Below, in pieces: positions 30,129 through 57,045 of a DNA stretch of 57,045 bases. The notes below the pieces were generated by a model, which searched no databases, was not told the origin of the DNA, and saw nothing but the letters and a program-made list of their open reading frames with translations. Source of the DNA: Nitrospirota bacterium (lineage in GTDB: Bacteria; Nitrospirota; Thermodesulfovibrionia; UBA6902); contig JACRQA010000142.1 of NCBI GenBank assembly GCA_016222915.1, positions 1 to 57,045 on the forward strand, given 5' to 3'. A program made the position numbers and the translations under genes. Position 1 is the stretch's first letter. Each line of letters opens with the position of its first letter.

Positions 30129-30163
30129 TAATATAAGTTAAATTGGAAGTTGTAATAATATGT

Positions 30164-32982: not shown

Positions 32983-33180
32983 CAATAACTATTATGATGT
33001 TAGATGAAGCTTCCTCAAATATATTTCTATATAAAAATCCCCACAAAAAAAGTCCTGAAAATGCCCCTGAAATGCCTGATGGACAAAGTGCGACCATTTG
33101 AATATCTGATCTGCAATATGTTGGATTATATTGAGCGGTCTTAAGAAAAGAAGTATGATTTTATTTAAAAAGGAGACTAT

Positions 33181-33954: not shown

Positions 33955-33958
33955 TTGG

Positions 33959-35158: not shown

Positions 35159-35177
35159 GAAAGTAAGAGGACCAACT

Positions 35178-36239: not shown

Positions 36240-36241
36240 TT

Positions 36242-37549: not shown

Positions 37550-37551
37550 CA

Positions 37552-40673: not shown

Positions 40674-41461
40674 TCGGTTTAGTCCCGGCAGCGGGAACAG
40701 CATCTCGAATAGCCCCACTTCCATGCAGCAAAGAATTATATCCTATTGGCTTTCGTTCAACTAATAACGGCAGCGAGCTGAGGCCGAAAGTCGTAACGCA
40801 TTATCTCCTTGAAAGTTTGCGGTCGGCAGATGTCACGAAGGCGTATATCATATTGCGTGAAGGTAAATGGGATATTCCCAAATATTTCGGTGACGGGAAG
40901 ATGATAGATATGGACCTGGCCTACCTCATGATGGATTCACCCTATGGAGTGCCTTTTACACTTGATCAGGCATATCCGTTTGTAAAGGATGCCCTTGTAG
41001 CGCTGGGATTCCCTGATATAATTTTTGAACCGGACGATGCATACAGAAAATTATTTATAAAACAGACTGAAACAAATGCCGACATAGTACTGGGACTCTT
41101 TCCCACCCTGCAAAAGCATAAAACGGATATGGTTGAACTGGATGAGCGCGGTACAGTGTGTGCTATTCATATAAAACCTGAAACTACGAAGCTGGTATAT
41201 TCATGGGAGATTGCTGTCTGGACCCCGGCATTCACGAAATATATGCATGATTATATTGCAGCAAAGAAAGAAAATATCATTGATTTCCATTGTCAAAAAG
41301 AACTGTTTGTAGGGGACGTGATCCAGGCTGCGATCAGGGACGATATGTATATAGAATCCGTAATTTATCAAAACGGAAATTGCATAGATATCGGAACTCC
41401 TGAAGATATGGTCAAAGCTGCTTATATGTCAAACCGGGTTTTGAAGGACAATAGCATATGA
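40661..41461 (+). CDS. Sugar-phosphate nucleotidyltransferase
   Basis: GLVPAAGTASRIAPLPCSKELYPIG matches the NTP_transferase N-terminal signature. GTG start overlaps the preceding gene by 13 nt. Confidence 0.7.
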   Translation: MREVIGLVPAAGTASRIAPLPCSKELYPIGFRSTNNGSELRPKVVTHYLLESLRSADVTKAYIILREGKWDIPKYFGDGKMIDMDLAYLMMDSPYGVPFTLDQAYPFVKDALVALGFPDIIFEPDDAYRKLFIKQTETNADIVLGLFPTLQKHKTDMVELDERGTVCAIHIKPETTKLVYSWEIAVWTPAFTKYMHDYIAAKKENIIDFHCQKELFVGDVIQAAIRDDMYIESVIYQNGNCIDIGTPEDMVKAAYMSNRVLKDNSI

Positions 41462-41510
41462 CAATTATGCTTCAGCGGAACGGGACAACGGCTGTACTGA
41501 AAGGATTAGG

Positions 41511-42389
41511 ATGAATTTTATTAAGAGAACATTACAAAAATTTAATGATGCTCTGGACATAAAAACAGATAGCAACACATTAACCGTTATTGACCCCATA
41601 ACGAGATGGCAAAAAAGAGATTTCAGTGAATTGGTTGAATATCGGGACCTGTTTTTTTTATTTGCCTGGCGTCAAATAAAAGTTATGTATGCACAAACGA
41701 TATTGGGGTTTTCCTGGGCTATATTGAAACCTTTTGTACAAATAGTTATTTTTACTATTATTTTCGGAACGGTTGCCAAAGTGCCCACGGAAGGGGTACC
41801 CTATTTTCTTTTTTCATGCGCTGCAATCGTCCCCTGGAGTTTTATATCGCAGGCAATTTCCGAATCTAGTCAGAGCCTTATTACCAACTCAGGAATGTTG
41901 GGAAAGGTCTATTTTCCCAGGGTGATCTTTCCATTAACGCCTGTCTTCTCCAGGCTGATTGATTTTGGAATTTCTATGCTTATTGTATTATGTGCCATGC
42001 TGTATTATCATGTTTATCCCACACGGAACCTGCTACTCTTTCCATTGTTCGTTTTTACTATGATGCTTGTTCCTACCGGTATCGGCCTGTGGTTGTCTTC
42101 TCTTGCTATAAGGTATCGGGATGTTAACCATGCAATGGTCTTTATTATTCAAATGCTTGTTTACACCGCTCCTATCGTATATTCCGCATCATCTATACCG
42201 GCAAAATATCGCTATCTATATTCACTGAATCCGATAGTCGGAGTAATAGAAGGATTCAGGGCCTGTTTGCTCGGGACACCAGTGCCATGGTCGTATATAA
42301 TTCCTGGAGTCATCACATCCGTTATTCTAATTATCACTGGAGCAATTTATTTCAAGCGTATGGAAAAGATCATAGTTGACGTAATATAG
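41511..42389 (+). CDS. wzm: ABC-2 type polysaccharide exporter permease (Wzm/KpsM-like)
   Basis: About six TM segments. Conserved N-terminal LVEYRDLFFLFAWRQIKVMYAQTILGFSWAILKP. Confidence 0.85.
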   Translation: MNFIKRTLQKFNDALDIKTDSNTLTVIDPITRWQKRDFSELVEYRDLFFLFAWRQIKVMYAQTILGFSWAILKPFVQIVIFTIIFGTVAKVPTEGVPYFLFSCAAIVPWSFISQAISESSQSLITNSGMLGKVYFPRVIFPLTPVFSRLIDFGISMLIVLCAMLYYHVYPTRNLLLFPLFVFTMMLVPTGIGLWLSSLAIRYRDVNHAMVFIIQMLVYTAPIVYSASSIPAKYRYLYSLNPIVGVIEGFRACLLGTPVPWSYIIPGVITSVILIITGAIYFKRMEKIIVDVI

Positions 42390-42419
42390 CAAGACAAGCA
42401 GTCGATCTCAAGGAGTGAA

Positions 42420-43787
42420 ATGAGCAATATAAGTTTATCAATTAAGGCTGAAAATTTAGGCAAGTGCTACCGCATAGGCGTAAAAGAGAACATGCATGAC
42501 AGCCTTGCAAAAAGTATATTTAATTTCGTGAAAAGTCCGGTAAAAAACTATCAGAAGCATCGCTCACTTTATAATTTTGATGACGTAATACAAGGCGCAG
42601 AAGGCAACACTTCCGATGTAGTTTGGGCCTTGCGGGACGTTTCCTTTGAGATAAAGCAAGGGGAGGTTGTTGGGATAATCGGCATCAACGGCGCAGGGAA
42701 ATCAACTCTTCTGAAGGTCCTTTCCAGAATTACAAACCCAACAAAAGGGTATGCAGAGATTCGTGGGAAAATATCAAGCCTCCTGGAGGTGGGCACCGGC
42801 TTTCATCCTGAACTCACGGGCAGGGAAAACATTTATCTTAACGGCACCATTCTTGGAATGAGAAGCAAGGAGATAGACCGCAAATTTGATGAGATTGTGG
42901 ACTTTTCAGGAGTGGAAAAGTTCATCGATACACCCGTTAAGCGTTACTCCAGTGGTATGAAAGTTCGACTGGCCTTCGCTGTTGCGGCCCATCTGGAGCC
43001 TGAAATACTGCTTATAGACGAGGTGCTTGCAGTCGGAGATGTGCGGTTTCAGAAGAAATGTTTAAACAAGATGGAGGACGTAAGCCAGCATGGAAGGACC
43101 GTCCTTTTTGTGTCACATAATATGCAGGCGGTGACCCGGCTTTGTCCACGGACCATTCTCCTGGGGAATGGTACACTGCTGGCTGACGGACCATCGCATA
43201 AAATAGTTAATCTCTATATGGATTCCGAAAAAGGGCTTAAAGATGAACGTGAATGGCCTGATCTCAGTGAGGCCCCTGGGGATGATGTGGTCCGGCTGTG
43301 TGCTGTTCGGGTCCGCTTAGAGAATGGCAGGCTTACAGACGCCGTTGACATTCGTAAACCTGTTAGCATTGAGATGGAATACGAGGTGCTTCAGCCTAAG
43401 CAGGTGTTGATGGTCTACTATCATGTTGTTAACGAAGAAGGTCTTGAAATATTTACAGCCATTGATAACGACCCTACCTGGCGCAAGCGCGAGCGGCCGG
43501 TTGGACGGTATGTAAGCACAGTCTGGATTCCAGGGAACTTCCTGTCGGAGGGGATACTATATATCGGTCCGGGAATATACAGCCTGGATCCGTATATGAA
43601 ACATTTTAGCTTCAACGACGCTGTTTCATTCCAGATAATCGACAGCTTGGATGGTGACACGGCGCGCGCAGATTTTGTGGGCAACATGAATGGTGTGATC
43701 AGACCGATGTTGAAATGGGAAACTCATTATGGTCCACGGGGATCACATAACGAAGAAGCAATGGCAACCAGGAACAAATCAAGATAA
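42420..43787 (+). CDS. wzt: ABC polysaccharide exporter ATPase with extra C-terminal (Wzt_C-like, glycan-end-binding) domain
   Basis: Walker A GINGAGKST, signature YSSGMKVRL, Walker B LLIDEVLAVGD, plus a ~200-aa C-terminal extension. Confidence 0.85.
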   Translation: MSNISLSIKAENLGKCYRIGVKENMHDSLAKSIFNFVKSPVKNYQKHRSLYNFDDVIQGAEGNTSDVVWALRDVSFEIKQGEVVGIIGINGAGKSTLLKVLSRITNPTKGYAEIRGKISSLLEVGTGFHPELTGRENIYLNGTILGMRSKEIDRKFDEIVDFSGVEKFIDTPVKRYSSGMKVRLAFAVAAHLEPEILLIDEVLAVGDVRFQKKCLNKMEDVSQHGRTVLFVSHNMQAVTRLCPRTILLGNGTLLADGPSHKIVNLYMDSEKGLKDEREWPDLSEAPGDDVVRLCAVRVRLENGRLTDAVDIRKPVSIEMEYEVLQPKQVLMVYYHVVNEEGLEIFTAIDNDPTWRKRERPVGRYVSTVWIPGNFLSEGILYIGPGIYSLDPYMKHFSFNDAVSFQIIDSLDGDTARADFVGNMNGVIRPMLKWETHYGPRGSHNEEAMATRNKSR

Positions 43788-43893
43788 CCCCCCCTGTAAG
43801 GTTCTCCCCAAACTTGTCCATAAGCTGATACAGCGTGACAGGAAATATCCTGAATACGTATTCAGGAAGACTTAGCTCTCTTTATATCAATGA

Positions 43894-43920
43894 ATCCCGA
43901 AATTAATCGGGATGTTTTTG
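43894..43920 (+). terminator. Rho-independent terminator after wzt
   Basis: ATCCCGA-AATTAA-TCGGGAT followed by GTTTTTG. Confidence 0.5.
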
Positions 43921-43950
43921 TTCTATAATATTTCACATTGAAATTTTCAA

Positions 43951-44463
43951 ATGAATAAGGATATGCATGAAATAACATATCGGGAAGCCTCTCCTGCAGA
44001 TTACCCTGCTATCAGTGAGCTAATGCGCCAGATGGGATGGGTAAACTGCATAGCCGTACCTGAGCGTTTTTACAGAATGATTGATAATTCAAGCAGGACG
44101 GTTGTGGCACTTGATGAATCCGGCATTATAGGTTTTGCCCGGGCCATATGTGATAGCGAATCGAACGGTTATATTACCGACGTTGCAGTTTCGCCTTCAA
44201 AGCAGGGGCGGGGAGTTGGGCGTAGACTTGTAACAATTCTGATGGGAGACAACCCTGAGATCAAGTGGGTCATAACTACAGCCCCGGCAAGCAGAATGTT
44301 TTGGGAAAAGCTGGGATTTACGACGCTGCATAATGCCATGGAAAAAAAAAGGGCATCTCAAAGACCAAGTAAAATGCATCCTTATTCTCAACCGGACACA
44401 AATTTGTTTAATAAATATGTCTTAGGTGTAGTGAAAAAAATATATCGTTTTATTAAGCCATAA
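43951..44463 (+). CDS. GNAT-family N-acetyltransferase
   Basis: Motif A VSPSKQGRGVGRRLV. Typical size. Confidence 0.75.
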   Translation: MNKDMHEITYREASPADYPAISELMRQMGWVNCIAVPERFYRMIDNSSRTVVALDESGIIGFARAICDSESNGYITDVAVSPSKQGRGVGRRLVTILMGDNPEIKWVITTAPASRMFWEKLGFTTLHNAMEKKRASQRPSKMHPYSQPDTNLFNKYVLGVVKKIYRFIKP

Positions 44464-44490
44464 TTAAAAGTGAATCGGACATCTTATCTT

Positions 44491-45264
44491 ATGAAAATAG
44501 CATTGATCCAGTTAAACATAGCATGGGAGTCAAAAAGAGCAAACTTTGATAAGGCTGAACTGTTTGTGAAAAAGGCTTCGCATGAAAAATGTGATATTGT
44601 TGTTTTCCCTGAGATGTTTAATACGGGCTTTTCCATGAACGTTTCTGCCGTTGCAGAAGATAAAGACGGAGAAACGGCGGCGATATTGTCAAATATGGCA
44701 CAAAAAAATAATATCAATATCATAGCAGGATATTCGCTGAAAGATGTTGATAATGGAAAAGGTAATAATATCGCTGCTGCATATGACCGTAAAGGTTTGC
44801 TCATTGCATCGTATACCAAAATCCATCCTTTTTCTTTTGCAAAGGAAGATCAGTATTATTCGGCCGGCAATACTACCGTTATATTTGATATCGAAGGAAT
44901 GAAGGCAAGTATATTTATTTGTTACGATTTGAGATTCCCTGAAGTATTCAGAAATGTAGCAAAGGAAGTTCAGACGATATTTGTAATTGCCAATTGGCCA
45001 TCAAGCCGCAGGGAACATTGGGAAACACTGCTTAAGGCAAGGGCTATAGAAAATCAATGTTTTGTAATTGGAGTCAATCGGACCGGAAAAGATGGTAATG
45101 ATATCCAATATCCAGGCTCATCTTTTGTCTTCGATCCATTGGGGAAGGAAATATGTTCAGGCAATGATGTAGACGAACTTATAATATGCAATATTAATAT
45201 TCATGAAGTCTCAGAAATACGCGCAAGGTTCCCGTTTCTAAAGGATATGCGTCGTTGGAAGTAG
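44491..45264 (+). CDS. Carbon-nitrogen hydrolase (nitrilase superfamily, omega-amidase-like)
   Basis: E-K-C triad contexts VVFPEMF, YTKIHPF, FICYDLRFPE. ATG 44491 (MKIALIQ) is preferred. Confidence 0.8.
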   Translation: MKIALIQLNIAWESKRANFDKAELFVKKASHEKCDIVVFPEMFNTGFSMNVSAVAEDKDGETAAILSNMAQKNNINIIAGYSLKDVDNGKGNNIAAAYDRKGLLIASYTKIHPFSFAKEDQYYSAGNTTVIFDIEGMKASIFICYDLRFPEVFRNVAKEVQTIFVIANWPSSRREHWETLLKARAIENQCFVIGVNRTGKDGNDIQYPGSSFVFDPLGKEICSGNDVDELIICNINIHEVSEIRARFPFLKDMRRWK

Positions 45265-45719
45265 GAATATGGAATTAATAAAATAAATAAGTGGCACCCA
45301 GCATACCTTATCAGTTCTTCCTTCCCAGTTTTTTAGCGGCAAAGATTATTATTTGACATTAACAGACTTATATGATAAATAAACAATACCCATCAAAAAA
45401 ATATTCTATCTCGACTTGCAAGTCCAGCTTCTACTGTTGTCATCTGAACATGATGGAATTATAGAGTGTAGTCATTCCTTACACTAATATTGGAATAATC
45501 GTCGAAATTATTGACATGATCATCCTGTAATTAAAGTAATCATATTGAAAATATTTTAAATATCAATCAGTTAAGAAAATGGTATTGTATTTGCATTATA
45601 TGTCTAATCAAGGTTTCTTGCTAAATGGGCAAGACTATGCCCAGGGTTATTAATATTCTGATATCTAGCTACATTAATAATTTTAGAAATATGGAGGATA
45701 AAATGAAAAGAGAATCAAA

Positions 45720-46265
45720 ATGTTATGCACAATAGGTGTGAGTTTGATATTTGAGCAGAATTCATATGCTCAAATAAGTGATGGTATTGCATCTTCAGTG
45801 CAAATAAAAGAAGGTGACGAATGGCGATATTTTAAAGGGGCACAGAAGCCGCCTCAAAACTGGAACCAAATTGGATTTGATGAGAGCGAGTGGCAAAAAG
45901 GACGATCAGGTTTTGGATATGGACAAAGCCTAAACAACACCTATCTCGGGGATATGAAAGGCAATTATTCAACTATCTATGCCCGCAGGACGTTCGTCAT
46001 CAATAATATTTATGAAGTTACCGGCATGACCCTGTCTTTAGTTTGTGACGGTGCATTCATTGCATACCTGAATGACCTGGAAATTATCCGAAATAATTCG
46101 AGCCGGCAGGCAGAACGTTTTAATGTCAGCGGGTTTATACACGAATTATTACCAGGTAAAAACATATTATCTGTTGAGTGCACTAATGACGATATAAACA
46201 GCAAAGATTATTCTTTTATTCCTTTATTTGAAGTTCATGAATATCAGGAGGGGGGCATACAATGA
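45720..46265 (+). CDS. Small secreted protein with galactose-binding-like/CBM-like domain; translationally coupled to the giant ORF
   Basis: EWRYFKG...W....FDESEWQKGRSGFGYG...TIYARRTF...CDGAFIAYLND is a pattern seen in carbohydrate-binding beta-sandwich modules. The stop overlaps the giant ORF's ATG (ATGA). The start is problematic (see findings). Confidence 0.65.
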   Translation: MLCTIGVSLIFEQNSYAQISDGIASSVQIKEGDEWRYFKGAQKPPQNWNQIGFDESEWQKGRSGFGYGQSLNNTYLGDMKGNYSTIYARRTFVINNIYEVTGMTLSLVCDGAFIAYLNDLEIIRNNSSRQAERFNVSGFIHELLPGKNILSVECTNDDINSKDYSFIPLFEVHEYQEGGIQ

Positions 46266-49200
46266 TTAATGCAAAGTGGTCAAACATGAATAAGAATAAG
46301 ATGCAAATGATTTTGCGGTCTTCAATTAATATTCTGCTCATTCTTGTATTTATATTGTTGATGCCCGGCAGAGCAGACGTATTCGCTGGAAATGCTAAAT
46401 ATATTATTCTGATGGTTGGGGACGGCTGGGGGCAGAAGGCCATAGAGGCAACAAATAAATACACCGGTACAACTCCTCCCTTTCAGCAAACTACACAGGA
46501 CAATAATCCCAGCACGTGGACCCAGCACTGGGTGTCAACATTCCCCATCGGTGGAAGTTATAGCTCGGCCCAGGCATGGTCGAACTTCAGTTATGTAATG
46601 AACAATCACGGAGACAGTGCTGCTTGTGCAACCGCACTGTACACAGGTTCCAAAACTGCCAATGGCAGAGTTACCGTATCTTCTGACGCATCGCAACGTT
46701 TTGAGTCAATAGCAGAAATCGCACAAAGTTATAATAAATTGGTAGGCGCAGTCAGTACGGTCCCTGTTTCACATGCCACACCAGGGGGCTGGGTAGCACA
46801 TAATGATGATCGCGGCAATACCTTTGCTATAGCGGACGAGGGTCTTTTCGGGGATCCGAACACTACAGGAACGCCGGCAACTGACTGGAAGTATGGAGGC
46901 GGCCACGGGCCATCGATAACAGCTGATGTCCTTATCGGATCAGATGGCGCAGGTTATGTCAGCAGCCAGATACTGACCAAACTGAGGAATGAGAGCGGAG
47001 CATTGGGAAACCCGGCCCGTGATATTACAAAGCATTTTCTTGTCGAGCGTCAGGGTGGCCAAAATGCCAGCGCAGCCCTGATGCAGGCTGCAACTGATCC
47101 TTATGTAACAAAATTGGCAGGACTATTTACTCATGTCTATCATAATGCTAATGATTCCGGCTACTCAACTGAAAATCCGAGGCTTTCTGAAAGCACAAGG
47201 GCAGCATTAAAGGTACTAGGAAAGGACCCGAATGGTTTCGTGCTTATGGTTGAAGGGGGCGCAATCGATTGGGCGGCACACGCAAACAACATGAACCAAT
47301 TGGTCGGTGAGGTGAAGGATTTTGATGATGCTATCAAGGAAGTCACTGACTGGGTAGAAAAGACCGGCTACTGGACAGGCAGCACCAATGACAGCAACTG
47401 GAATAATACATTGATCCTTGTAACGGGAGATCACGATTGCGGCTATCTTACAAAGGGTCCGGGAATATTTCCAAATCAGCCGCTTGGTAATGTCAATGAT
47501 ACCACCCTTGCAAAGGAAAAAATTGTATCAGGCACCGGCGGGCTTCGTGCAAGCTGGGAGGATATGGACGGTGACAGTCTTGTAGATGCCGGCGAGACCG
47601 TATACTGGTATTGGAATTCCGGAGACCACACTACATCCCTAATCCCGCTGTATGCCCGTGGGACCGGCTCCGAACTTATTGCCCAGTACGAAACAAGTAC
47701 GGATTCTGTACGTGGTCCTTATATCGATGACACACAAGTGTTTACTGTTATGAATGACGCACTTGCAGCGCAGTCGTGTAATGAAACAGGTTATATTTCG
47801 GTGTTACCGGGACAGTCGCTGTATGGCAACCCTCTGGATATTACTTCAAGCGCAGCTACAAGCGACGCAACCAATGTGACATATACGGTAAAAGTCACTA
47901 CAGGCTGTGATGTAGATCCAAACGGTTCGTTCATCAATGCAGAAAATTTCAGCGGTACCATAAACCAGGGCTCAGGCTACTGGTCAATATCAACCAGCAA
48001 TCCAGGGTATTTCGGCACCGGTCATCTGCGCTCTGATTATGGAAGCGGAGGCTCCTGTCCTGCGGTCGATCAGGGAAAAGAATACCGGGTTTACTTCCCG
48101 ACTGCCGGGACTTACTACATCTGGCTGAGGAACTGGTCCAAGAGCTTATCCGGTGACTCCGCATTTGTCGGAATCGATGGCAACTGTGCCGGATCAATCA
48201 GTGAAAGCGACAGCAGCGGCCAGACATGGAACCAGTGGAAATGGACAAAGAAGATGTGGACGGGTTCTACCCCTATTCCTAATACTATCAGCGTTCCCAC
48301 GCCGGGCTTTCATACCGTAAACGTATGGGTGCGTGAAAATGATTACCGCCTGGATGGTATTTATTTAACTCAGGGGACAGAAACACCGACCGATGCCTCG
48401 CATGGCATTGATGTGAATCCGGCTTCCTGCAATACAACCACGATTTTTACAGGAAGTGAGGCGCAGGCAACATCAATTAATACAACAGGATGGACAAATG
48501 GGTTGAAAGACATTGAAATAGCCGGGGACGATACCCAGTGTCTTAATCCCCTTGCAACAGCAAGCGGCACTTTTACCTTTAACAGCACAGTCCCAAATGC
48601 TGACTCTCTTATCATATCAGCTAATACTGCAATCGCTTCCATTGATCCTATGGAGGGAGACGCGGGGATTGTAATGCAGAGGTTTAAAGTGGACAGCAAC
48701 AACGTCCAAAACGGTCAGGTTGGACTAACATCTCTCACTCTTAGCGATGAGGGGACAACAGCATCAATCTTAGATGCCAAGATATATATATCAACGACCA
48801 GTTCAGGTTCCCTTCCTGCCGACGCGGTTCTGATCGGAAATACCGGCCTGTGGGATGGTAAAGCCATGGCTATTACACTTAGTGGAGGAACAGCCGCAGA
48901 TCGGACGGTCACAAACGGCACTTCCAAGTATATTTATATCGTCTACGATACTGCACCGGGACAGGCCGATACTACAATCCTTTCCCGTGTTTCCTCAGTT
49001 TTTGTAGCGGCGCCTGATTTGAATGTCGGGAATGTGGGCACTTCAAACCTGCTGAATATTTATGCCTGCGTCAAGACCGGTTCCATTTCAATGGTCCCCG
49101 GGCAGATATTAAACGGGAATCCTGCCAACCTCACATCACTTGTGAATACAAACAATGCTACGAACTTAATCTATACTGTGACAGAAGATAAATACTGTGA

Positions 49201-52200
49201 CGTTAGTCCGACCGGCACATTCATTCAGGCCGAGAATTTTAACTCTACTATAGTGCAGGGCTCAGGAACATTTTCATTGGAATCTTACGGATCAGGGTAT
49301 CTGGGGGCCGGTTTTATCGAGAGTCACAAGACTGGCACTGCAAAATCTACATGTCCGGCCATAGATGAAGGGAAGGAATACAGGGTCAATTTTACAACAA
49401 CCGGAACTTACTATGTGTGGTTAAGGGTTTATAATTGGTCTGAATCCAATGATTCAGCCTTCTTTGGATTAGACGGCGCCTGTATCGGAGCCCTGAGTCC
49501 AAGCGATGCTGTTAATATTAACAGATGGCTATGGTCAAAGAGGGCCTGGACCGGGTCGACTGAGTTCCCCGCTACTATTAATGTTACATCACCCGGCGTT
49601 CATACTATTAATCTATGGGTCCGGGAAACTCTTTATATGATAGACGGCATCTATCTTACCAAGGGCACTGAAACTCCGAATGATAATAGCCATGGCATAG
49701 AAATAGGCGCTATTTGTCCTACAACACTCTTCTCGGGTACTGAAGCACAGGCGCAATCTGTAAATACAACGACCTGGACAAACGGCGAGAAGAAAATTCA
49801 GGTAAGCGGTGACGATGCCACATGCCTTACCCATATTACGCCTGAAGACGGTACGTTTACCTATGACCGGAACCATCGCCCTACATCAACGATAACAGAC
49901 CCGCTTGATGGCGCAACACTGACCAGTGGTTCTCCTGACCCGTATGTAATCAGGGGTACAGCCAACGACGATGAATCGGTAAATCACGTAGAGGTCTCCA
50001 CAGACGGTGGTGCGACCTGGAATGTAGCCGATTGTCCCGGCTGCGCCGGCGCTTCAGTAGACTGGACTTACAGTTGGGCGCTTCCAGCTAATGGGAATTA
50101 CACAATCCTGAGTAAGGCCATAGATAACAGGGATGTTTCAGAAATATCGGGGCCGAGCTTAAATGTAACCATATATAGGGGCGGACCTTCAATCAGTTCT
50201 ACAATCCCGACCAATGGAGCAACGGCCGTTGTAGCAGACAGCACTGTAACGGTCAACTGGGACAGAAATATTGATTGTTCAACAGTAACAAATACCTCCG
50301 TAAGCATTAGTCCTGCGCCGGCATCATGGACAAAAACCTCCTGCAGTGGGACCCAGGCAGTGTTTACGCCCGTCGGTCAGGCCGAATTGACTACATATAC
50401 CTTGACTGTAAGCACATCTGTTCAAGATACGGTCGGCAATCCGATGGCTGCACAATATCAGTTTGCCTATACAACAGGTGAGTCTTCTGCGCCATCCTCT
50501 GCAATATCTGATCCTTTAAACGGCTCAAAGATAAACAGTAGTGCGCCGAATCCATATGTCATTACAGGAATGGCAAGCGACAATAACTTAGTACAGCAAA
50601 TAGAAGTATCCACAAACGGTGGAAGCACCTGGAATCTCGCTGCATGCAATGGCTGTCCAGGGTCAAACGTGAGTTGGACCTATAACTGGGCACTGCCTGC
50701 TGACGGCACTTACCTCATTAAGGTCCGTGCAACAGACACCTCTAACAACGTCGAGATACCTGGCGCAGGAAATACTGTGACTGTTGACAGGACTTCGCCT
50801 TCTGTCAGTAATACTACGCCTGTAAATGGATCTACTGCGGTGGTTCTTAACCAGAATATATCCATTACCTGGAATACGAATGTAGACTGTTCAACTGTCA
50901 ATACAAGCAACATAACATCAGACAGCCCTGGCTGGACTCTTTTCGGATGCAGTGGAAACACGGCATTTTTTACCACAAGCGGTCAGTCCGAATATGTGTT
51001 ATATACTGTGACCGTAACTACCGCAGTGAAAAACTCTGTGCAAGTCCCAATGAGCGATCCATATCAGTTCTCATACCGGACCAACAAGAAACCCGTACTG
51101 GCAATCCTCCAGCCTGATGGCGTCAATGATTCATTAAAGGCTGGTGAACCTTACAATGTTGCTTATAACCTTGATGACCCTGACCATAATGTGACTGCGG
51201 CGTTTTATTACGATACCGACAATGCGGGATATGACGGCACGGCAATTTCCGGCGCGTGCGCTGCAGTATCCGAGAATGCCGGGGCAACCTGCGTCTGGGA
51301 TACCACTGGTATGAATTCCGCCGGAATGCCTCCTCAGACCTTTTATATTTATGGAATAACAAATGACGGACAGGGAGAAGTTAAATCTTACTCCGTCGGT
51401 CAGATTACTATCTACCCGCCGAATGTACCGCCGGCATTATCCGTCTCTGAACCGAATGGAACGGATGATACGGCAGTCGCAGGAGATACCTATAACATTA
51501 ACTATAACCTGACTGATCAGAATGTTGATGATACCGTGACCGCAGCGTTCTACTATGATAGTGATAATGTGGGATATAACGGCACCGCAATCACAGGACC
51601 ATGTGCTGCGGCGACTGAAGGTACGGGCATAACCTGCGCGTGGAATACGGCAGGAATGACACCGGGCAGTTATTATATCTATGGTATCACAGGTGATAGC
51701 GGCGGCACTGTCAATGCCTATTCACCCGGACAAATTACGATAAACGCATTTAACACACTACCTTCATTTAATATCATAGAACCAAACGGGACGGCAGATG
51801 TTTTTAGACCGGGAGCTCCCCTGAATATAGTCTATAATCTTAATGATCCTGATGAGGTTGTGACCGCAAGATTTTATTATGACACTGACACGGAACCATT
51901 AAATCCTCCCGGATTGACAGGCATAACAGAATGCCAATCCGCGCCGGAAGGCCCAGGCTCGATATGTACCTGGAGTAATACAGCTAGTATAACGCCAGGC
52001 ATGTACTACATTTACGGAAAAGTCCAGGACAGAACAGGTGCTACCGTTGACGGCTATTCGGGGCCTTTCATGATAGATGTGACATTGCCATCATCGGCGA
52101 TCACTATTCCGTCAAATGGAGTTCTGATTAACAGCAGCGCATCTGACCCGTATACGGTAAACGGTACGGCTTCAGATAATTCAGGGGTCCAGGGAGTTGA

Positions 52201-55200
52201 AGTGTCCGTTAACGGAGGGGCATGGACATCAGCATCATGCACAGGCTGCGGCACCGGAAGTGCAAACTGGACGTATGATTGGAGCCTGCCTTCTGATGGC
52301 ATATATACCATACAGAGCCGTTCGACAGACGTAGCTGGTAATTTGGAGATTCAAGGCGCCGGGAATACGGTAACTATTGACAGGACCGCGCCTGCAGTCA
52401 ATTCAACAGTGCCGGCTAATGGAGCTGTGGGAATAGCTATAGACGGCAATGTAACTATTACATGGTCAGAGAATGTAAATTGTTCAACTGTGAGTACAGC
52501 AAACATCACATCAACCAGTCCAGGCTGGACCTTATCTAGCTGCTCAAACAACCAGGCGGTATTTACCACGAGCGGACAAGCCGATTCGACCGCATACCAG
52601 GTAAATATAACTACAGCAGTGACCGACATAGCCGGAAATCCGATGTCTTCAGCCTATCCATTCTCCTACACGACCAATGTTCCACCGGCTCTCTCAATCT
52701 CCGATCCCAATGGAACGGACGGAACTCAAACAATAGGTAATCCGTATACAATTATTTATTCATTGACTGATCCTGATAATACGGTAACTGCAGCTCTCTA
52801 CTATGATACGGACAATTCGGGATTGGGCGGCACAGCCATTCCAGGCTGCGCCTCTGTTTCCGAGGGGATGAATGCCGAGTGTATTATGGATACCGCAGGC
52901 ATGACTCCCGGCACCTATTATATTTATGGAGTCACCGGTGATGGAAGCGGAGGTAGCGCCTGCGTCACCCGCATATGGGACGGTGAAGGGACCGATAATC
53001 TCGCATCAAATGCGGACAACTGGTCAGATAATACTGCGCCTCAGACTGGTGAGGATGTTGTTTTTAACGGGACTTCCACAAAAGCTTGTGACTGGAACAT
53101 CCCTGTTGAGCTTTTGTCATTAAGTCTCAATTCAGGATATTCAGGAACGGTTTCAATAAATTCTCCTTTGACAATTAATGGTGATTTGATTGTGTCTGAC
53201 GGGACCTTGATTCAAAATGCAAATGTTACATTAAGCGGTCAGGGAGGCAGTTGCACTCCGCAAGGCGGCAGTCAGATCAGCGCATATTCAGCCGGGTCGA
53301 TGACTATAGGTAACGCAGGCATAACCGTGACACCGACGAGCGGATTAGTGACAACAGAGGCAGGAGGGACAGCGACCTTTACAGTAGCGCTTAACACTGA
53401 ACCGACAGCAGATGTAACCATAGCCCTGGGCAGTTTAGATACGGGCGAAGGCATAGTATCACCTGCAAGCCTGACATTTACACCTGCGGACTGGAATGGA
53501 CTGAAGACTGTGACGGTGACCGGCCAGGACGATGCCATTCTTGATGGTTCAGTGAATTATTCAATAATTATTGACTCAGCAATCAGCGCTGACCTCAATT
53601 ACAACGGAATTAATCCGGATGACGTGAGCATCATTAACACAGATAATGAGAGCCCGGCTGTGAGCATAGCAGCTACGACAAACGGAGCAGAGGATGCAGT
53701 GAATCCGACAAACGGTGTATTCACTGTAAGTCTGAGCACAGTGAGCGCAACGGACACGGTGGTAAGCTACACCGTGGACGGTACGGCAGCGGCCGACAAT
53801 GACTATACGGCATTGAGCGGACAGGTGACGATACTTGCTAACACACCTTCAGCGACAATAACGGTGCCTGTAACAGATGATCTGGTCCTGGAAGGGAATG
53901 AGACGGTAGTAGTGACCATAACCGGAACGGACAATCCATCTATTACTTTAGGAGCGCCTATCAACGCAACAGTGAACATCTCAGATGATGAACATCCAGT
54001 TGTGAGCATAGCTGCTACGACTAATGGAGCGGAACCGGCGACGGATGGCGCATTCACAGTAAGCCTGAGCACGATAAGCGCAACCGATACGGTGGTCAGC
54101 TACACCGTGGACGGTACGGCAGCGGCCGGCAATGACTATACGGCATTGAGCGGACAGGTGACGGTACTTGCTAACACACCTTCAGCGACAATAACAGTGC
54201 CTGTAACGGACGATCTGGTCCTGGAAGGTGCTGAGACGGTAGTTGTGACGGTAACCGGGACGGACAATCCATCTATTAATGTAGGAGCGTCCAGTAGTGA
54301 TACGGTGAACATTACAGACAATGAGACAACATCTGCGGTAAGTATAGCAGCGACAACGAACGGAGCAGAACCATCATTGAACGGTCAGTTTACGGTAAGT
54401 CTGAGCACAGTAAGCGCAACGGACACGGTGGTCAGCTACACAGTGGGTGGTTCAGCATCGGCTGGCAATGACTATACGGCATTAAGCGGACAGGTGACGA
54501 TACCTGCAAACACGTCATCAGCGACGATAACATTGCCTGTTATAGATGAGCTGATTCCGGAAGGTACTGAGACGGTGATTGTTACCTTAACCGTTACAGA
54601 CAATCTGACGATTACCATAGGAGTGTCCGGTAGTGCGGCAGGAAACATAACTGATAATGACAATGCCTTGGTGAGCGTAACGGCGACGATACAGGCAGAG
54701 GAGCCTGCGACAAACGGCAGGTTTACAGTAAGCCTTGACAAAGCCACTGACACAGACACGGTTGTAAGTTACGCAGTGGGTGGTACAGCAGCAGCCGGGA
54801 CTGACTATACGGCATTAAGCGGTCAGGTGACGATACCTGCTAACCAGCTCAGTGCTCTGATTGATGTGTCGGTAATCGATGATTCAATTCTTGAAGGTAC
54901 TGAGACGCTGGTTCTTACCTTAACGGGTACGAATAATGCATCGATCACACCAGGAGTTCCCAGCAGTGACACGTTAAACATTACGGACAATGACAACGCA
55001 TCAGTGATGGTAGAAGATGTAAGTGCGACAGAAGGAGGCAATCTGGTATTTACGGTAACTCTGAACAATGCTGTATCCGGGGCCTTTGATGTGAATGTAA
55101 GCTTTACAAACGTGACGGCAAACGGCGGAGGTGTCGACTATAATAGCACAGGTAAAGTGCTCAATTTTGCGGGCACAGCAGGTGAGACGAAGCAGTTCAC

Positions 55201-57045
55201 CGTGGCAACGACAGATGATGTGCTCTTTGAAGGTGCGGAAACATTCACTGTAAACCTCAGTGCTACCAACGCCTTGGTTAACGCCGGTGACACTGCCACA
55301 GCATCGATTGTCGATAATGAAAGTGCAACAGTAAGCATTGCGGCCACAATTAACGGCGCAGAACCTGCCACGAACGGGAGGTTCACCGTGACCTTGTCGA
55401 GCTACTGTCCGCAGTCGATTAACGTGAACTATTCGGTTTCAGGCACGGCAGCGGCAGGCACGGACTACACTGCATTGAGTGGAACTGTAACGATCCCTGC
55501 TTATACCCTGTCGAGAACGATTAACGTTGCGGTTATCAATGATTCGATTTTAGAAGGCGCGGAAACAGTGGTTGCGGAGTTAACGGGGACGAATAATGGA
55601 GCGATTACTGTGGGCTCGCCAAAGATTGCTACAGTAAATATCAACGACAACGAAAGCGCATCAGTGACAGTGTCAGATGTAAGTATTGCAGAAGGCGGCA
55701 ACCTGGTATTTACAGTGAGCCTGAACAACGCGGTAGCCGGTCCCTTTGATGTGAATGTTGGATTTAGTAACGTGACTGCAACCGGTGGGATAGACTATGA
55801 CAATACTGCCCAGGTGCTGCATTTTGACGGCACAATAGGAGAGACCAGGCAGTTTACAGTAACAACAACAGATGATCCAATACTTGAGCAGAGCGAGACC
55901 TTTACAGTGACACTGACTGCGACAAATGAACTGGTGACTGACAGCGACACGGCCATAGGTACGATTACTGACAATGACACGACCACGGCAAGCATATCAG
56001 CAACGACAAATGGAGCAGAGCCTGCGACGAATGGTGTGTTTACGGTAAGTCTGAGCACAGAGAGCGCAACTGATACGGTGGTCAGTTATACAGTGGGCGG
56101 CACAGCAGCAAACGGTACGGATTACACAGTGGTTGTGACCTTAACAGGGACGAATAATGGAGCGATCAGTATTGCGGTGTCTCCGAATAACACGGCGACT
56201 ATAGATATTGCTGATGATGATACTTCATCCGAAGTCAGTATATCAGCTACGAACAATGGAGCAGAGCCTGCGACGAATGGAGTATTTACGGTAAGCTTAA
56301 CGAAGGCGAGCGTGACTGATACGGTAGTCAACTATGAAGTAAGCGGCACAGGAGCGGCCGGAAGTGACTATGCGGTATTGAGCGGCACGGTAACGATACC
56401 AGCAAACGCATCTTCAGTGACCATAACAGTGTCTGTTATAGATGATCTGGTGCTGGAAGGTAATGAGACGGTGGTTGTAAACATAACGGGCACAAACAAT
56501 GTGGCGATCAGTGTAGGAGCGGCCAACAACGCGACAGTGAACATCTTGGATAATGAGACAGCATCTGAGGTGAGCATAGCAGTAACGACTGATGGAGCAG
56601 AGCCTGCGACGAATGGTGTGTTCACGGTAAGTCTGAGTACGGTAAGCGCAACGGACACAGTGGTTGACTATACAGTTGGCGGCACAGCGGCGGACGGCAG
56701 TGACTATGCAGTATTGAGCGGCACGGTAACGATACCAGCAAACGCATCTTCAGCGACGATAACAGTGCCTGTTATAGATGATCTGGTACTGGAAGGTAAC
56801 GAGACGGTGGTTGTAAACATAACTGGCACAAACAATGTGGCGATCAATGTAGGAGCGTCCGACACTGCGACGGTAAACATCATAGACAATGAGACAGGGG
56901 CTGAGGCAAGCATATCAGCAACGACAAATGGAGCAGAGCCTGCGACGAATGGTGTGTTTACGGTAAGTCTGAGCACAGAGAGCGCAACTGATACGGTGGT
57001 CAGTTATACAGTGGGCGGCACAGCAGCAAACGGTACGGATTACAC
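46262..57045 (+). CDS. Giant (>3594 aa, 3'-incomplete) secreted/surface multidomain protein with an N-terminal PhoA-type alkaline phosphatase domain
   Basis: Frame 2 was read by eye from ATG 46262 (AGGAGG ~10 nt upstream) to 57045 without a stop. The ORF track omits it because it has no in-window stop. AP motifs: ILMVGDGWG, GDSAACATA, SHATPGG, EGGAIDWAAHAN, TGDHDCG, GDHT. These are followed by CBM-like, Ig-like/SbsA-like, 'YYDTDN' and Calx-beta modules. Confidence 0.85.
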   Translation, partial: MINAKWSNMNKNKMQMILRSSINILLILVFILLMPGRADVFAGNAKYIILMVGDGWGQKAIEATNKYTGTTPPFQQTTQDNNPSTWTQHWVSTFPIGGSYSSAQAWSNFSYVMNNHGDSAACATALYTGSKTANGRVTVSSDASQRFESIAEIAQSYNKLVGAVSTVPVSHATPGGWVAHNDDRGNTFAIADEGLFGDPNTTGTPATDWKYGGGHGPSITADVLIGSDGAGYVSSQILTKLRNESGALGNPARDITKHFLVERQGGQNASAALMQAATDPYVTKLAGLFTHVYHNANDSGYSTENPRLSESTRAALKVLGKDPNGFVLMVEGGAIDWAAHANNMNQLVGEVKDFDDAIKEVTDWVEKTGYWTGSTNDSNWNNTLILVTGDHDCGYLTKGPGIFPNQPLGNVNDTTLAKEKIVSGTGGLRASWEDMDGDSLVDAGETVYWYWNSGDHTTSLIPLYARGTGSELIAQYETSTDSVRGPYIDDTQVFTVMNDALAAQSCNETGYISVLPGQSLYGNPLDITSSAATSDATNVTYTVKVTTGCDVDPNGSFINAENFSGTINQGSGYWSISTSNPGYFGTGHLRSDYGSGGSCPAVDQGKEYRVYFPTAGTYYIWLRNWSKSLSGDSAFVGIDGNCAGSISESDSSGQTWNQWKWTKKMWTGSTPIPNTISVPTPGFHTVNVWVRENDYRLDGIYLTQGTETPTDASHGIDVNPASCNTTTIFTGSEAQATSINTTGWTNGLKDIEIAGDDTQCLNPLATASGTFTFNSTVPNADSLIISANTAIASIDPMEGDAGIVMQRFKVDSNNVQNGQVGLTSLTLSDEGTTASILDAKIYISTTSSGSLPADAVLIGNTGLWDGKAMAITLSGGTAADRTVTNGTSKYIYIVYDTAPGQADTTILSRVSSVFVAAPDLNVGNVGTSNLLNIYACVKTGSISMVPGQILNGNPANLTSLVNTNNATNLIYTVTEDKYCDVSPTGTFIQAENFNSTIVQGSGTFSLESYGSGYLGAGFIESHKTGTAKSTCPAIDEGKEYRVNFTTTGTYYVWLRVYNWSESNDSAFFGLDGACIGALSPSDAVNINRWLWSKRAWTGSTEFPATINVTSPGVHTINLWVRETLYMIDGIYLTKGTETPNDNSHGIEIGAICPTTLFSGTEAQAQSVNTTTWTNGEKKIQVSGDDATCLTHITPEDGTFTYDRNHRPTSTITDPLDGATLTSGSPDPYVIRGTANDDESVNHVEVSTDGGATWNVADCPGCAGASVDWTYSWALPANGNYTILSKAIDNRDVSEISGPSLNVTIYRGGPSISSTIPTNGATAVVADSTVTVNWDRNIDCSTVTNTSVSISPAPASWTKTSCSGTQAVFTPVGQAELTTYTLTVSTSVQDTVGNPMAAQYQFAYTTGESSAPSSAISDPLNGSKINSSAPNPYVITGMASDNNLVQQIEVSTNGGSTWNLAACNGCPGSNVSWTYNWALPADGTYLIKVRATDTSNNVEIPGAGNTVTVDRTSPSVSNTTPVNGSTAVVLNQNISITWNTNVDCSTVNTSNITSDSPGWTLFGCSGNTAFFTTSGQSEYVLYTVTVTTAVKNSVQVPMSDPYQFSYRTNKKPVLAILQPDGVNDSLKAGEPYNVAYNLDDPDHNVTAAFYYDTDNAGYDGTAISGACAAVSENAGATCVWDTTGMNSAGMPPQTFYIYGITNDGQGEVKSYSVGQITIYPPNVPPALSVSEPNGTDDTAVAGDTYNINYNLTDQNVDDTVTAAFYYDSDNVGYNGTAITGPCAAATEGTGITCAWNTAGMTPGSYYIYGITGDSGGTVNAYSPGQITINAFNTLPSFNIIEPNGTADVFRPGAPLNIVYNLNDPDEVVTARFYYDTDTEPLNPPGLTGITECQSAPEGPGSICTWSNTASITPGMYYIYGKVQDRTGATVDGYSGPFMIDVTLPSSAITIPSNGVLINSSASDPYTVNGTASDNSGVQGVEVSVNGGAWTSASCTGCGTGSANWTYDWSLPSDGIYTIQSRSTDVAGNLEIQGAGNTVTIDRTAPAVNSTVPANGAVGIAIDGNVTITWSENVNCSTVSTANITSTSPGWTLSSCSNNQAVFTTSGQADSTAYQVNITTAVTDIAGNPMSSAYPFSYTTNVPPALSISDPNGTDGTQTIGNPYTIIYSLTDPDNTVTAALYYDTDNSGLGGTAIPGCASVSEGMNAECIMDTAGMTPGTYYIYGVTGDGSGGSACVTRIWDGEGTDNLASNADNWSDNTAPQTGEDVVFNGTSTKACDWNIPVELLSLSLNSGYSGTVSINSPLTINGDLIVSDGTLIQNANVTLSGQGGSCTPQGGSQISAYSAGSMTIGNAGITVTPTSGLVTTEAGGTATFTVALNTEPTADVTIALGSLDTGEGIVSPASLTFTPADWNGLKTVTVTGQDDAILDGSVNYSIIIDSAISADLNYNGINPDDVSIINTDNESPAVSIAATTNGAEDAVNPTNGVFTVSLSTVSATDTVVSYTVDGTAAADNDYTALSGQVTILANTPSATITVPVTDDLVLEGNETVVVTITGTDNPSITLGAPINATVNISDDEHPVVSIAATTNGAEPATDGAFTVSLSTISATDTVVSYTVDGTAAAGNDYTALSGQVTVLANTPSATITVPVTDDLVLEGAETVVVTVTGTDNPSINVGASSSDTVNITDNETTSAVSIAATTNGAEPSLNGQFTVSLSTVSATDTVVSYTVGGSASAGNDYTALSGQVTIPANTSSATITLPVIDELIPEGTETVIVTLTVTDNLTITIGVSGSAAGNITDNDNALVSVTATIQAEEPATNGRFTVSLDKATDTDTVVSYAVGGTAAAGTDYTALSGQVTIPANQLSALIDVSVIDDSILEGTETLVLTLTGTNNASITPGVPSSDTLNITDNDNASVMVEDVSATEGGNLVFTVTLNNAVSGAFDVNVSFTNVTANGGGVDYNSTGKVLNFAGTAGETKQFTVATTDDVLFEGAETFTVNLSATNALVNAGDTATASIVDNESATVSIAATINGAEPATNGRFTVTLSSYCPQSINVNYSVSGTAAAGTDYTALSGTVTIPAYTLSRTINVAVINDSILEGAETVVAELTGTNNGAITVGSPKIATVNINDNESASVTVSDVSIAEGGNLVFTVSLNNAVAGPFDVNVGFSNVTATGGIDYDNTAQVLHFDGTIGETRQFTVTTTDDPILEQSETFTVTLTATNELVTDSDTAIGTITDNDTTTASISATTNGAEPATNGVFTVSLSTESATDTVVSYTVGGTAANGTDYTVVVTLTGTNNGAISIAVSPNNTATIDIADDDTSSEVSISATNNGAEPATNGVFTVSLTKASVTDTVVNYEVSGTGAAGSDYAVLSGTVTIPANASSVTITVSVIDDLVLEGNETVVVNITGTNNVAISVGAANNATVNILDNETASEVSIAVTTDGAEPATNGVFTVSLSTVSATDTVVDYTVGGTAADGSDYAVLSGTVTIPANASSATITVPVIDDLVLEGNETVVVNITGTNNVAINVGASDTATVNIIDNETGAEASISATTNGAEPATNGVFTVSLSTESATDTVVSYTVGGTAANGTDY
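47777..49717 (+). repeat. Two paralogous ~217-aa five-Cys CBM-like modules inside the giant ORF (47777-48430 and 49067-49717)
   Basis: Both read C..(I/L)(S/N)..PGQ...CDV.P.G.FI.AENF......GSG........GY.G.G......C PA(V/I)D(Q/E)GKEYRV.F.T.GTYY(I/V)WLR...S.(D/N)S AF.G(I/L)DG.C.G.....W.W.......(T/S)PG.HT(V/I)N(V/L)WVRE......DGIYLT.GTETP...SHGI. Confidence 0.7.
49880..52960 (+). repeat. Three (Ig-like + SbsA_Ig-like) module pairs interleaved with four ~110-aa 'YYDTDN' modules inside the giant ORF
   Basis: Ig-like pairs start near 49880, 50483 and 52078 (I(T/S)DPLDG...V.V S.(D/N)GG.(T/W)...C.GC......W(T)Y.W.LP.(D/N)G.Y, then P.(I/V).ST.P.NG(A/S)..V). The 'YYDTDN' modules are at ~51086, 51416, 51751 and 52678. 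Confidence 0.65.
53650..57045 (+). repeat. Array of at least 11 Calx-beta-like units (period ~330-342 nt) inside the giant ORF
   Basis: Repeated ...VSIAATTNGAEPATNG.FTVSLS..SATDTVVSYTVGGTAAAG.DYTALSG.VTIPAN..SATITVPV.DD.VLEG.ETVVV.LTGT.N... Two variant units are at ~54999 and ~55659 (SVMVEDVSATEGGNLVFTV...VDYNSTG..L.F.G..GE.KQFTV.T.DD...E..ETFTV.L). Confidence 0.8.

Follow-up and report, generated by a model that had tools for sequence, protein, structure and literature searches.

The window analysed here, a stretch of 57,045 nt from a Nitrospirota bacterium of the Thermodesulfovibrionia (UBA6902; assembly GCA_016222915.1) that is probably the whole of contig JACRQA010000142.1, ends in a giant open reading frame (ORF) that appears to encode a PhoA-family alkaline phosphatase mounted on a very long chain of beta-sandwich modules (Table 1). 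We hold this architecture of head, modules and terminal array with high confidence, and the reading that we favour, giving it a somewhat better than even chance, is that of an exported phosphomonoesterase held in a glycan-rich envelope or matrix on a stalk of ~100 nm. The gene overlaps that of a small, predicted jelly-roll partner, and the pair stands beside a locus for the synthesis and export of surface glycans.

The open frame and its product

The preliminary description of the window had read frame 2 as open from ATG 46262 to the window edge, and the translation of all 3,594 codons contains no stop. Stops number 276 and 263 in the two remaining forward frames over the same interval, which, together with a collinear orthologue in an independent metagenome-assembled genome (MAG), argues that this is not a chance open frame; the gene is missing from the ORF list only because its frame leaves the sequence without a stop. 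Directly upstream of the start codon lies AGGAGGGGGG, and the start shares the tetranucleotide ATGA with the stop of the 181-aa ORF that precedes it. The N-terminus is signal-like (ILRSSINILLILVFILLMPGRADVFA) and by inspection comprises a basic n-region, a 13-aa hydrophobic core, Val at position -3 and Ala at position -1, in agreement with the hydrophobic signal noted previously, and the same layout is found in the 3,533-aa orthologue from GCA_016214845.1. The visible part of the protein has a mass of 371 kDa and is very acidic (isoelectric point ~4.05). We regard the ORF as a genuine gene and its product, from the putative Sec signal, as an exported multidomain chain.

The phosphatase head

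The first 14% of the >3,594-residue chain is a PhoA-type domain, in which residues 45-500 cover positions 1-420 of the 423 of the Pfam profile (PF00245, E 5e-45). Every motif quoted in the preliminary description was located, in order, between residues 51 and 458: MVGDGWG (51-57), GDSAACATA (117-125), SHATPGG (170-176), EGGAIDWAAHAN (331-342), GDHDCG (389-394) and SGDHTT (453-458). The nearest PDB sequences are 7qow, 6qsq, 3e2d and 3wbh (E~1e-23), of which we take 3e2d to be the cold-active Vibrio alkaline phosphatase and 3wbh the Halomonas enzyme, and E. coli PhoA (1alk) and the mammalian enzymes are more distant matches.

All 12 catalytic positions are present in the head, namely (with the presumed E. 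coli equivalents in brackets) D54 (D51), S119 (S102), H171 (153), T173 (T155), R184 (R166), E331 (E322), D336 (D327), W337 (328), H340 (H331), D390 (D369), H391 (H370) and H456 (H412), where 153 and 328 are taken to be variable positions of the family. They include the complete set of ligands of the two-zinc site (D54, D390, H391, D336, H340 and H456), the magnesium-site residues T173 and E331 and the phosphate-binding R184. The nucleophile S119 stands in a DSA motif that aligns with the DSA of 7qow and 6qsq and is invariant in 12 out of 12 aligned family members, and the His171/Trp337 variant is that of the best-matching solved enzymes. The full set of 12 residues is identical in 9 of 11 aligned relatives, every giant included, which argues that the head is under selection as a catalyst. 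Every testable feature of the PhoA family is thus found in the sequence, and the head is predicted to be a catalytically competent PhoA-type phosphomonoesterase. It has in common with the solved crown-domain enzymes (7qow, 6qsq, 3e2d, 3wbh) the PF00245 fold, the DSA serine, the Arg166 equivalent, the zinc and magnesium ligands and the His153/Trp328 pair; these enzymes, however, are soluble periplasmic or secreted proteins of 375-531 residues, whereas the head in the window sits on a chain of >3,594 residues and is accompanied by a jelly-roll partner.

The modular tail

The ~3,100 residues said to follow the catalytic domain were mapped with Pfam and by a chunked self-comparison of the protein, and consist largely of Ig-like and Calx-beta arrays (Table 1). 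The profile searches suggested in the preliminary description matched Alk_phosphatase, with the catalytic Ser, Asp and His residues kept in the alignment, as well as Calx-beta (PF03160, 281 bits in nine stretches), Big_5 (three times), Big_7 (three times) and a Mo-co_dimer-like Ig match. An exhaustive protein search with residues 505-1704 returned 4,569 proteins at E<=1e-3, of which 247 had E<=1e-30.

In module A, N- and C-flanks of ~45 and ~60 aa make up a frame that encloses a beta-sandwich core resembling a carbohydrate-binding module (CBM). The CBM-like character reported previously is supported by a modelled fold for the small partner (see below); inside the giant protein there is a weak GH115_C match alone, at 20-21 bits for each module A copy against a cut-off of 24.1 bits. 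The whole giant protein reaches 29.6 bits and its orthologue 25.3 bits, and the homologue P0184 carries a precomputed PF17829 match, so that calling the module A cores of the window CBM-like seems reasonable but is weakly supported. The core within the frame varies between proteins, being a GH115_C-like sandwich in the window, a jelly roll of the small-ORF type in P0191 and an RCC1 propeller in P0193. The module A frame looks like a domain-insertion scaffold and is apparently uncatalogued. Modules A and B also follow other heads, such as glycosidase-like N-termini (P0185, P0188) and RCC1 repeats (P0193), and copies of module B with 48-60% identity stand alongside module A in P0185, P0188, P0189 and P0191.

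Repeat C follows the pattern …EPNGT…Y.I.Y.L.DPD..VTA.FYYDTDN.G.NGT.I…C.W.T.G…G.YY.YG…, and arrays of it are also present in P0190, P0194 and P0202, where they sometimes alternate with DNRLRE/CBM96-type domains. A DNRLRE domain obtained as a PDB match of repeat C was rejected, as it belongs to P0190, which had dominated the profile. Region D, which is 65% identical to that of the orthologue, has neither a Pfam match nor a PDB sequence match; in a metagenome scan with this region the generic Calx-like unit alone matched, and the proteins found were unrelated adhesins, e.g. with tails of the type IX secretion system (T9SS) type. Within the terminal array the DNA repeat families are spaced at 333-336 nt, and the translated Calx-beta units contain the acidic motifs DDLVLEGNET or DDSILEGTET.

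Table 1. Features of the giant gene, its partner and their surroundings (window coordinates; residues are those of the giant protein)
Feature	Coordinates	Strand	Remarks
Upstream glycan locus	26818-45264	+	Pfam/NCBIfam; syntenic with L005 and L011
Out-of-frame remnant of the small ORF's original start, MKRESKCYAQ (then stop)	45704-45736	+	GGAGGA ribosome-binding site upstream
Small partner ORF, 181 aa	45720-46265	+	Predicted GH2_N-like jelly-roll fold; stop overlaps giant start (ATGA)
Giant ORF	46262-57045	+	3,594 codons, stop-free, runs off contig end
Sec-type signal peptide, residues 1-42	46262-46387	+	By inspection; probable cleavage between VFA and GN
PhoA-family alkaline phosphatase head, residues 45-500	46394-47761	+	PF00245, 154.6 bits (cut-off 24.4)
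Module A copy 1, residues 505-774	47774-48583	+	50-59% identical to copy 2; GH115_C 20.4 bits, E 5e-4
Module B, residues 775-934	48584-49063	+	Unique within the giant protein; without Pfam match
Module A copy 2, residues 935-1202	49064-49867	+	GH115_C 20.9 bits
Two Big_7 + Big_5 pairs, residues 1203-1402 and 1403-1604	49868-51073	+	Pfam; self-similarity 47-50%
Repeat C, three copies (~113 aa), residues 1605-1942	51074-52087	+	Self-similarity 38-54%; without Pfam match
Third Big_7 + Big_5 pair, residues 1943-2135	52088-52666	+	Pfam and self-comparison
Repeat C, fourth copy, residues 2136-2232	52667-52957	+	Self-comparison
Region D, residues 2233-2415	52958-53506	+	Unique beta-helix-like segment, then one generic Calx-like unit
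Calx-beta array, residues 2416-3594	53507-57045	+	~10.6 units of ~111 aa, cut by contig end
Exact 141-nt repeat, internal copy	55987-56127	+	Following Calx-beta unit 90 nt (30 aa) short
Exact 141-nt repeat, terminal copy	56905-57045	+	At contig end

The small partner

The small ORF forms a family with 63 homologues, 150-245 aa long and without a Pfam domain, from Nitrospirae, Kuenenia, Loosdrechtia and Scalindua. Its AlphaFold2 (AF2) model, built from a 38-sequence alignment, has a pLDDT of 86.4 and a pTM of 0.80, and each of the top 50 Foldseek matches of the model is an N-terminal domain of the GH2 type (probability 1.0, E~1e-7, TMq 0.50-0.58), suggesting a jelly roll of the sugar-binding type. 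By sequence the protein is neither a Glyco_hydro_2_N nor a CBM family member, with no Pfam family at E<=0.01 and none that is meaningful at E<=1. Its predicted fold class is that of the N-terminal jelly roll of GH2 glycosidases, at 11-20% sequence identity; in GH2 enzymes, however, this domain is part of the glycosidase, whereas here it forms a free-standing secreted protein of ~200 aa or an insert of the phosphatase protein.

Co-translation of the giant with a small CBM-like protein had been proposed, and the ATGA overlap together with the modelled fold supports this; the 4-nt overlap recurs between the small ORF and the phosphatase gene in loci L001, L002 and L005. The small ORF precedes the phosphatase gene in 10 other loci (L001, L003, L005, L007, L009, L010, L012, L013, L014 and L086) and directly adjoins it in nine of these, being one gene removed in Kuenenia (L003). 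In that genome (LT934425.1, 550973-571623) the small ORF and the gene of a 3,015-aa giant are separated by a gene for a 940-aa cadherin/Big_5/LamG protein, the C-terminus of which is its own copy of the small-ORF-type jelly roll. The jelly-roll domain is also fused in-chain with the phosphatase in P0017, P0001 and P0191; P0017, with 621 aa in total, consists of a phosphatase head followed directly by the jelly roll. As Rosetta-stone evidence, these fusions argue for joint action of the small protein and the phosphatase, and from the arrangement of the two genes we regard the small ORF and the giant as a translationally coupled cassette.

In the alignment, homologues of the small ORF start with MKRES(E/K)CYARKGW (MKRESECYARKGW) followed by a hydrophobic segment of ~20 aa. 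In the window this start survives as an out-of-frame remnant (Table 1), and the ORF resumes in another frame at ATG 45720, without most of the hydrophobic segment (~20 codons). The apparent damage to the 5' end could be either a real lesion or an assembly error.

Relatives and conservation

The orthologue in the Nitrospirae MAG GCA_016214845.1 (locus L005) occupies the matching gene position, and the readable part of its 3,533-aa product was aligned to residues 1-3155 of the window protein. The two proteins are collinear, with 60-79% identity in most 100-aa bins (minimum 43%) up to residue ~2450 and 18-31% beyond, where the orthologue has a different, ~105-aa Calx-like repeat without a Pfam Calx-beta match. 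This pattern indicates that the core is conserved and that the terminal array behind it varies with the lineage. An analogous protein is encoded in the complete genome of Ca. Kuenenia stuttgartiensis, namely the 3,015-aa giant mentioned above, in which the phosphatase head is followed by LamG and Big_5 arrays.

Our search of the contigs of species-representative genomes, a set that does not include GCA_016214845.1, with the phosphatase head returned 10 loci, and every giant among them runs off its contig. The phosphatase-headed ORFs of these Nitrospirota/Thermodesulfovibrionia loci leave their contigs at >1,360, >1,575, >1,823, >2,536 and >3,456 aa. Complete members of the family include short forms of 664-680 aa and intermediate forms of 1,282 aa (P0191), 1,379 aa (P0289) and 1,625 aa (P0194); in short members of ~620-680 aa, head and jelly roll are retained and the stalk is missing. 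In the protein database, relatives of the head at 45-67% identity number in the hundreds, from MAGs of Nitrospirota, anammox Planctomycetota and Chloroflexota, and many of them have adhesin-type tails, every one listed being <=910 aa long. Giants seem to be missing from the word-indexed protein database. Such genes are systematically broken in short-read assemblies, and their under-representation follows from the fact that most of the relatives found here run off their contigs. Two MAGs hold two cassettes each (L001 and L005 in GCA_016214845.1; L012 and L086 in GCA_947259645.1), and in these paralogous pairs one phosphatase protein is short or intermediate (680 or 1,379 aa) and the other is a giant (3,533 or >3,456 aa). 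The comparison identifies the giant and its partner, as read from these genomes, as members of a conserved cassette family in Nitrospirota and anammox bacteria. Taken with other genes of the window, such as those for a hybrid-cluster protein and a CoA-dehydratase-activase fusion, these relatives make an anaerobic, Thermodesulfovibrionia-like member of the Nitrospirota the most likely source.

The neighbouring glycan locus

As the preliminary description had stated, the giant gene lies beside a locus for extracellular polysaccharide or glycan synthesis; it stands at the 3' end of a nucleotide-sugar, Wzm/Wzt and Wza/Wzc locus. The locus encodes a Wza-like exporter, a Wzc-like chain-length/tyrosine-kinase protein, a PglF-like dehydratase, nucleotidyl-transferases, an epimerase, an aminotransferase, a sugar C-methyltransferase, RmlC, a DUF4910 protein, Wzm/Wzt, a GNAT protein and a CN_hydrolase.

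Neighbourhoods were counted over the window and 14 other phosphatase-gene loci in which the sequence upstream could be read (15 in total, L011 and L084 being one locus). The cassette lies behind Wzm/Wzt or other glycan genes in 8 of the 15, from two phyla: Wzm/Wzt is just upstream in the window, L003, L005, L011 and L013 (5/15), and L007, L009 and L012 have other glycan genes upstream (GT4, sugar-transfer ATP-grasp, APS kinase, methyltransferase, APH/choline-kinase-like phosphotransferase). In L003, the Kuenenia locus, an APH-like kinase gene follows Wzt. Five of the 15 (L001, L014, L083, L085 and L086) are away from glycan genes, and in L008 and L010 the upstream genes are unannotated and without a match to the genes of the window locus. 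Linkage of the cassette to glycan loci is therefore frequent across phyla and not obligatory. No Pho-regulon genes were seen in any scanned neighbourhood. Promoter and terminator scans of the 455-bp gap upstream of the cassette performed no better than on shuffled sequence, and no 9-mer is common to four or more of the upstream regions of 10 cassettes.

The C-terminus and the export route

P0191 is a complete phosphatase-headed relative, with its gene inside a 29.5-kb contig, and it ends in a module of ~85 aa that reads ...YF.TLQ.AY...GGYDC.Y...NF.I. The same module closes P0185, P0224 and P0280 as well as a protein of the window with NHL, PKD and BACON domains (23626-25701, minus strand), of which it forms the last ~80 residues. 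The GG[YL]DC core stands 34-36 residues from the end in P0185, P0191 and P0224. The P0185/P0191/P0224/P0280-type proteins are giant secreted proteins with modules A and B, and one of them, P0191, is phosphatase-headed. No Pfam or NCBIfam family covers this module, and it was not found in loci L001-L082. It may be a candidate sorting or anchoring domain for this class of giants.

No PEP-CTERM-like tail is present in any ORF of the window, outside which the giant's own C-terminus lies, and the exopolysaccharide export genes score below the cut-offs of the XrtA-associated models. No ABC/MFP/TolC export genes of the type I secretion system (T1SS) kind occur in the 46 kb upstream. A T1SS/RTX adhesin of the LapA/SiiE type was rejected on account of the putative N-terminal Sec-type signal and the lack of T1SS genes in these 46 kb.

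Proposed role and alternatives

Our data suggest that the giant protein would be exported through Sec and then retained at the envelope or in the matrix by its C-terminal part. Its ~27-30 beta-sandwich modules would form a stalk which, because an Ig-like domain measures ~4 nm, would be ~100 nm long, and which Ca2+ would stiffen at the Calx-beta units. Docking on glycans would fall to the CBM-like modules and the jelly-roll partner, and the head would hydrolyse phosphomonoesters inside the cell's own glycan-rich surface layer or matrix.

Several points weigh against this proposal. The C-terminus lies beyond the contig end and no anchor or sorting signal is in view, and some cassettes (L001, L014, L083, L085 and L086) do not adjoin glycan loci. 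Carbohydrate binding by module A is put in doubt by single copies that fall below the GH115_C cut-off (20.4 and 20.9 against 24.1 bits), by a poor AF2 model (pLDDT 43, from an alignment of three sequences) and by a 10-sequence profile of the core that returned nothing significant among PDB sequences. The signal region of the small partner is apparently deleted or frameshifted in this contig, the 3' array carries an assembly risk through its 141-nt repeat, and no paper on phosphatase-headed giants or their family was found in the literature.

The cassette might instead be a dedicated glycan-maturation enzyme of the Wzm/Wzt pathway that takes a terminal or side-chain phosphate off the exported polysaccharide or a glycoprotein glycan, which we consider unlikely. 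One candidate substrate would then be a phosphate-containing, chain-terminating cap added by an APH-type kinase, the modules and the partner would deliver the substrate, and phosphate scavenging would be incidental. A precedent exists in E. coli O9a, where WbdD adds a methyl-phosphate cap that is recognised by the C-terminal domain of Wzt, and Wzt_C-type domains are present in the Wzt proteins here; APH/choline-kinase-like phosphotransferases are encoded in the Kuenenia and L012 loci, but the window's own locus has no kinase gene. The position behind glycan genes in 8 of 15 loci from two phyla fits such a role, although L001, L083, L085 and L086 lie far from glycan genes. The swappable binding-module core, the conserved partner and the lack of Pho-regulon neighbours also speak for this alternative. 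PhoA-type enzymes, however, are typically broad-specificity monoesterases, and a stalk of ~3,000 residues is difficult to reconcile with a periplasmic or outer-leaflet step. Less likely again is a bolder proposal, in which the partner and the giant of anaerobic Nitrospirota and anammox Planctomycetota would together be a hitherto unrecognised module for glycan editing outside the cell, belonging to the Wzm/Wzt pathway. After export it would strip phosphate groups or caps from the cell's own surface polysaccharide or glycoprotein glycans, with the swappable cores setting glycan specificity and the ~85-aa GG[YL]DC domain possibly acting as an anchor.

The architecture also recalls giant stalk proteins and fibrillar adhesins such as LapA, SiiE, the Marinomonas ice-binding adhesin and BapP of Pseudoalteromonas (PMC12153261), which have tens of tandem beta-sandwich modules, as here. 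Further points of resemblance are acidic, probably Ca2+-binding Calx-beta units, modules near one end that in the giant are candidate ligand binders, and arrays that vary between relatives. RTX adhesins, however, use type I secretion without a cleavable N-terminal signal, whereas the giant of the window has an apparent Sec-type signal, and fibrillar adhesins present a distal adhesin domain where the window protein has an enzyme as its distal head. Large surface-protein genes next to glycan loci are known from Gram-positives, where surface-layer (S-layer) glycoprotein genes are flanked by ABC-transporter-dependent glycosylation (slg) clusters. With these clusters and with Kustd1514 of Kuenenia (PMC5088730) the present locus has in common a very large surface-protein gene beside a Wzm/Wzt-type locus with methyltransferases; a lattice or glycosylation would be speculative for the giant of the window.

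In our view it is improbable that the giant serves mainly for structure or adhesion, as a fibrillar adhesin, a scaffold of the matrix or a glycoprotein associated with the S-layer, with the phosphatase as moonlighting cargo and a glycan locus that adjoins the gene because it glycosylates the giant, as in the Gram-positive S-layer clusters. Such a role would account for a tail whose modules contain 17-29% Ser+Thr, for the 88 N-x-S/T sequons and the acidity of the protein, for the long Ig-like and Calx-beta arrays, for the fast turnover of the distal array between orthologues, which is typical of surface proteins, and for the presence of modules A and B behind quite different heads in other giants. 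The S-layer protein of anammox Kuenenia, Kustd1514, is moreover heavily O-glycosylated (PMC5088730). The catalytic residues, however, are conserved across the giants, consistent with an enzyme under selection, and the short members keep head and jelly roll without any stalk, so that enzyme and binding module form the invariant core. The S-layer protein of Kuenenia is also a different gene at a different locus: identity of the Kuenenia giant with it was rejected, as Kustd1514/KSMBR1_1301 lies at ~0.94 Mb and the cassette at 0.55-0.57 Mb, ~0.4 Mb apart.

The 3' end of the contig calls for caution. Its last 141 nt repeat an internal stretch exactly (Table 1), and identity between the two copies stops at their upstream edge; the 30 aa that the next Calx-beta unit lacks are missing right after the internal copy, at the junction 56127/56128 (GTDY|TVVVTL). 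The repeat length of 141 equals the largest k-mer that a common metagenome assembler uses by default, which fits a contig that stopped at an unresolved repeat, and the terminal repeat and the short unit together point to a repeat that the assembly left unresolved or collapsed. For the last ~1 kb, neither the count nor the order of the units is therefore secure. It is very improbable that an assembly artefact or a pseudogene fragment, in which a phosphatase gene and unrelated repeat-protein sequence form a chimera, accounts for the giant ORF or for its distal part, and realistically this concerns the distal array only. Such an artefact would fit this repeat, the unit that is 30 aa short right after its internal copy, the damaged 5' end of the adjacent small ORF and the absence of the giant protein itself from the protein database. 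Against it, an orthologue from an independent assembly aligns collinearly with residues 1 to ~2450 at 60-79% identity, the frame stays free of stops over 10.8 kb, and other genomes contain phosphatase-headed ORFs of similar size.

Novelty and significance

The domains of the giant protein are familiar, and its architecture, conserved partner and linkage to a glycan locus were not found described in the literature; the term 'alkaline phosphatase' does not occur in the supplements of Kuenenia comparative-genomics studies. Among the closest known sequences are unstudied database entries of 500-900 aa, from the same subfamily (45-67% identity) and the same taxa, in which a phosphatase head is followed by Big_5, cadherin-like, Calx-beta, LamG or FGE-sulfatase tails. 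Compared with these, the giant of the window and its orthologues are 4-6 times longer and possess in addition the A-B-A frame modules, repeat C and a terminal array that is itself long.

Textbook alkaline phosphatases are soluble periplasmic or secreted enzymes, and here one is predicted to be mounted at the tip of a chain of >3,500 residues, in an arrangement conserved in at least two phyla of slow-growing, biofilm- or granule-forming anaerobes that are relevant to the nitrogen and sulfur cycles and to wastewater treatment. If the enzyme does work in the cell's own glycan layer, this would bear on phosphate acquisition and recycling in dense matrices and on how unusual surface glycans are finished. 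The cassette further provides a function-linked handle on three unnamed module families (the A frame, module B and the 113-aa C repeat) and on a small orphan protein family.

Other features of the window

The PglF-like dehydratase of the glycan locus (30835-32982, plus strand; CoA_binding_3 and Polysacc_synt_2) contains an MshE-type cyclic di-GMP (c-di-GMP) motif between its two halves, at residues ~286-338 (NF053729, 62 bits against a cut-off of 38), which hints that c-di-GMP may control the first step of the glycan pathway. The G+C content falls from 0.44-0.50 to 0.33-0.38 at ~24000-34000, a region that comprises the NHL/PKD gene, a 1.1-kb gap and the Wza, Wzc, DnaJ and PglF genes, and horizontal acquisition is possible for this low-G+C part of the glycan locus. 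No Rfam families or tRNAs were found in the window. Two of the listed ORFs (33181-33954 and 33740-35158, plus strand) have 215 nt in common. Since the DAO domain of the second does not begin before residue 78, this ORF probably has its true start farther downstream, and the longest-ORF rule is the likely cause of the overlap. Farther upstream, the window encodes a 1,415-aa protein with two acyl-CoA dehydratase activase domains of the BcrAD/BadFG type (9838-14085, minus strand) and a hybrid-cluster protein (hydroxylamine reductase; 18645-20288, plus strand, 826 bits), both of which point to an anaerobic lifestyle of the source organism.

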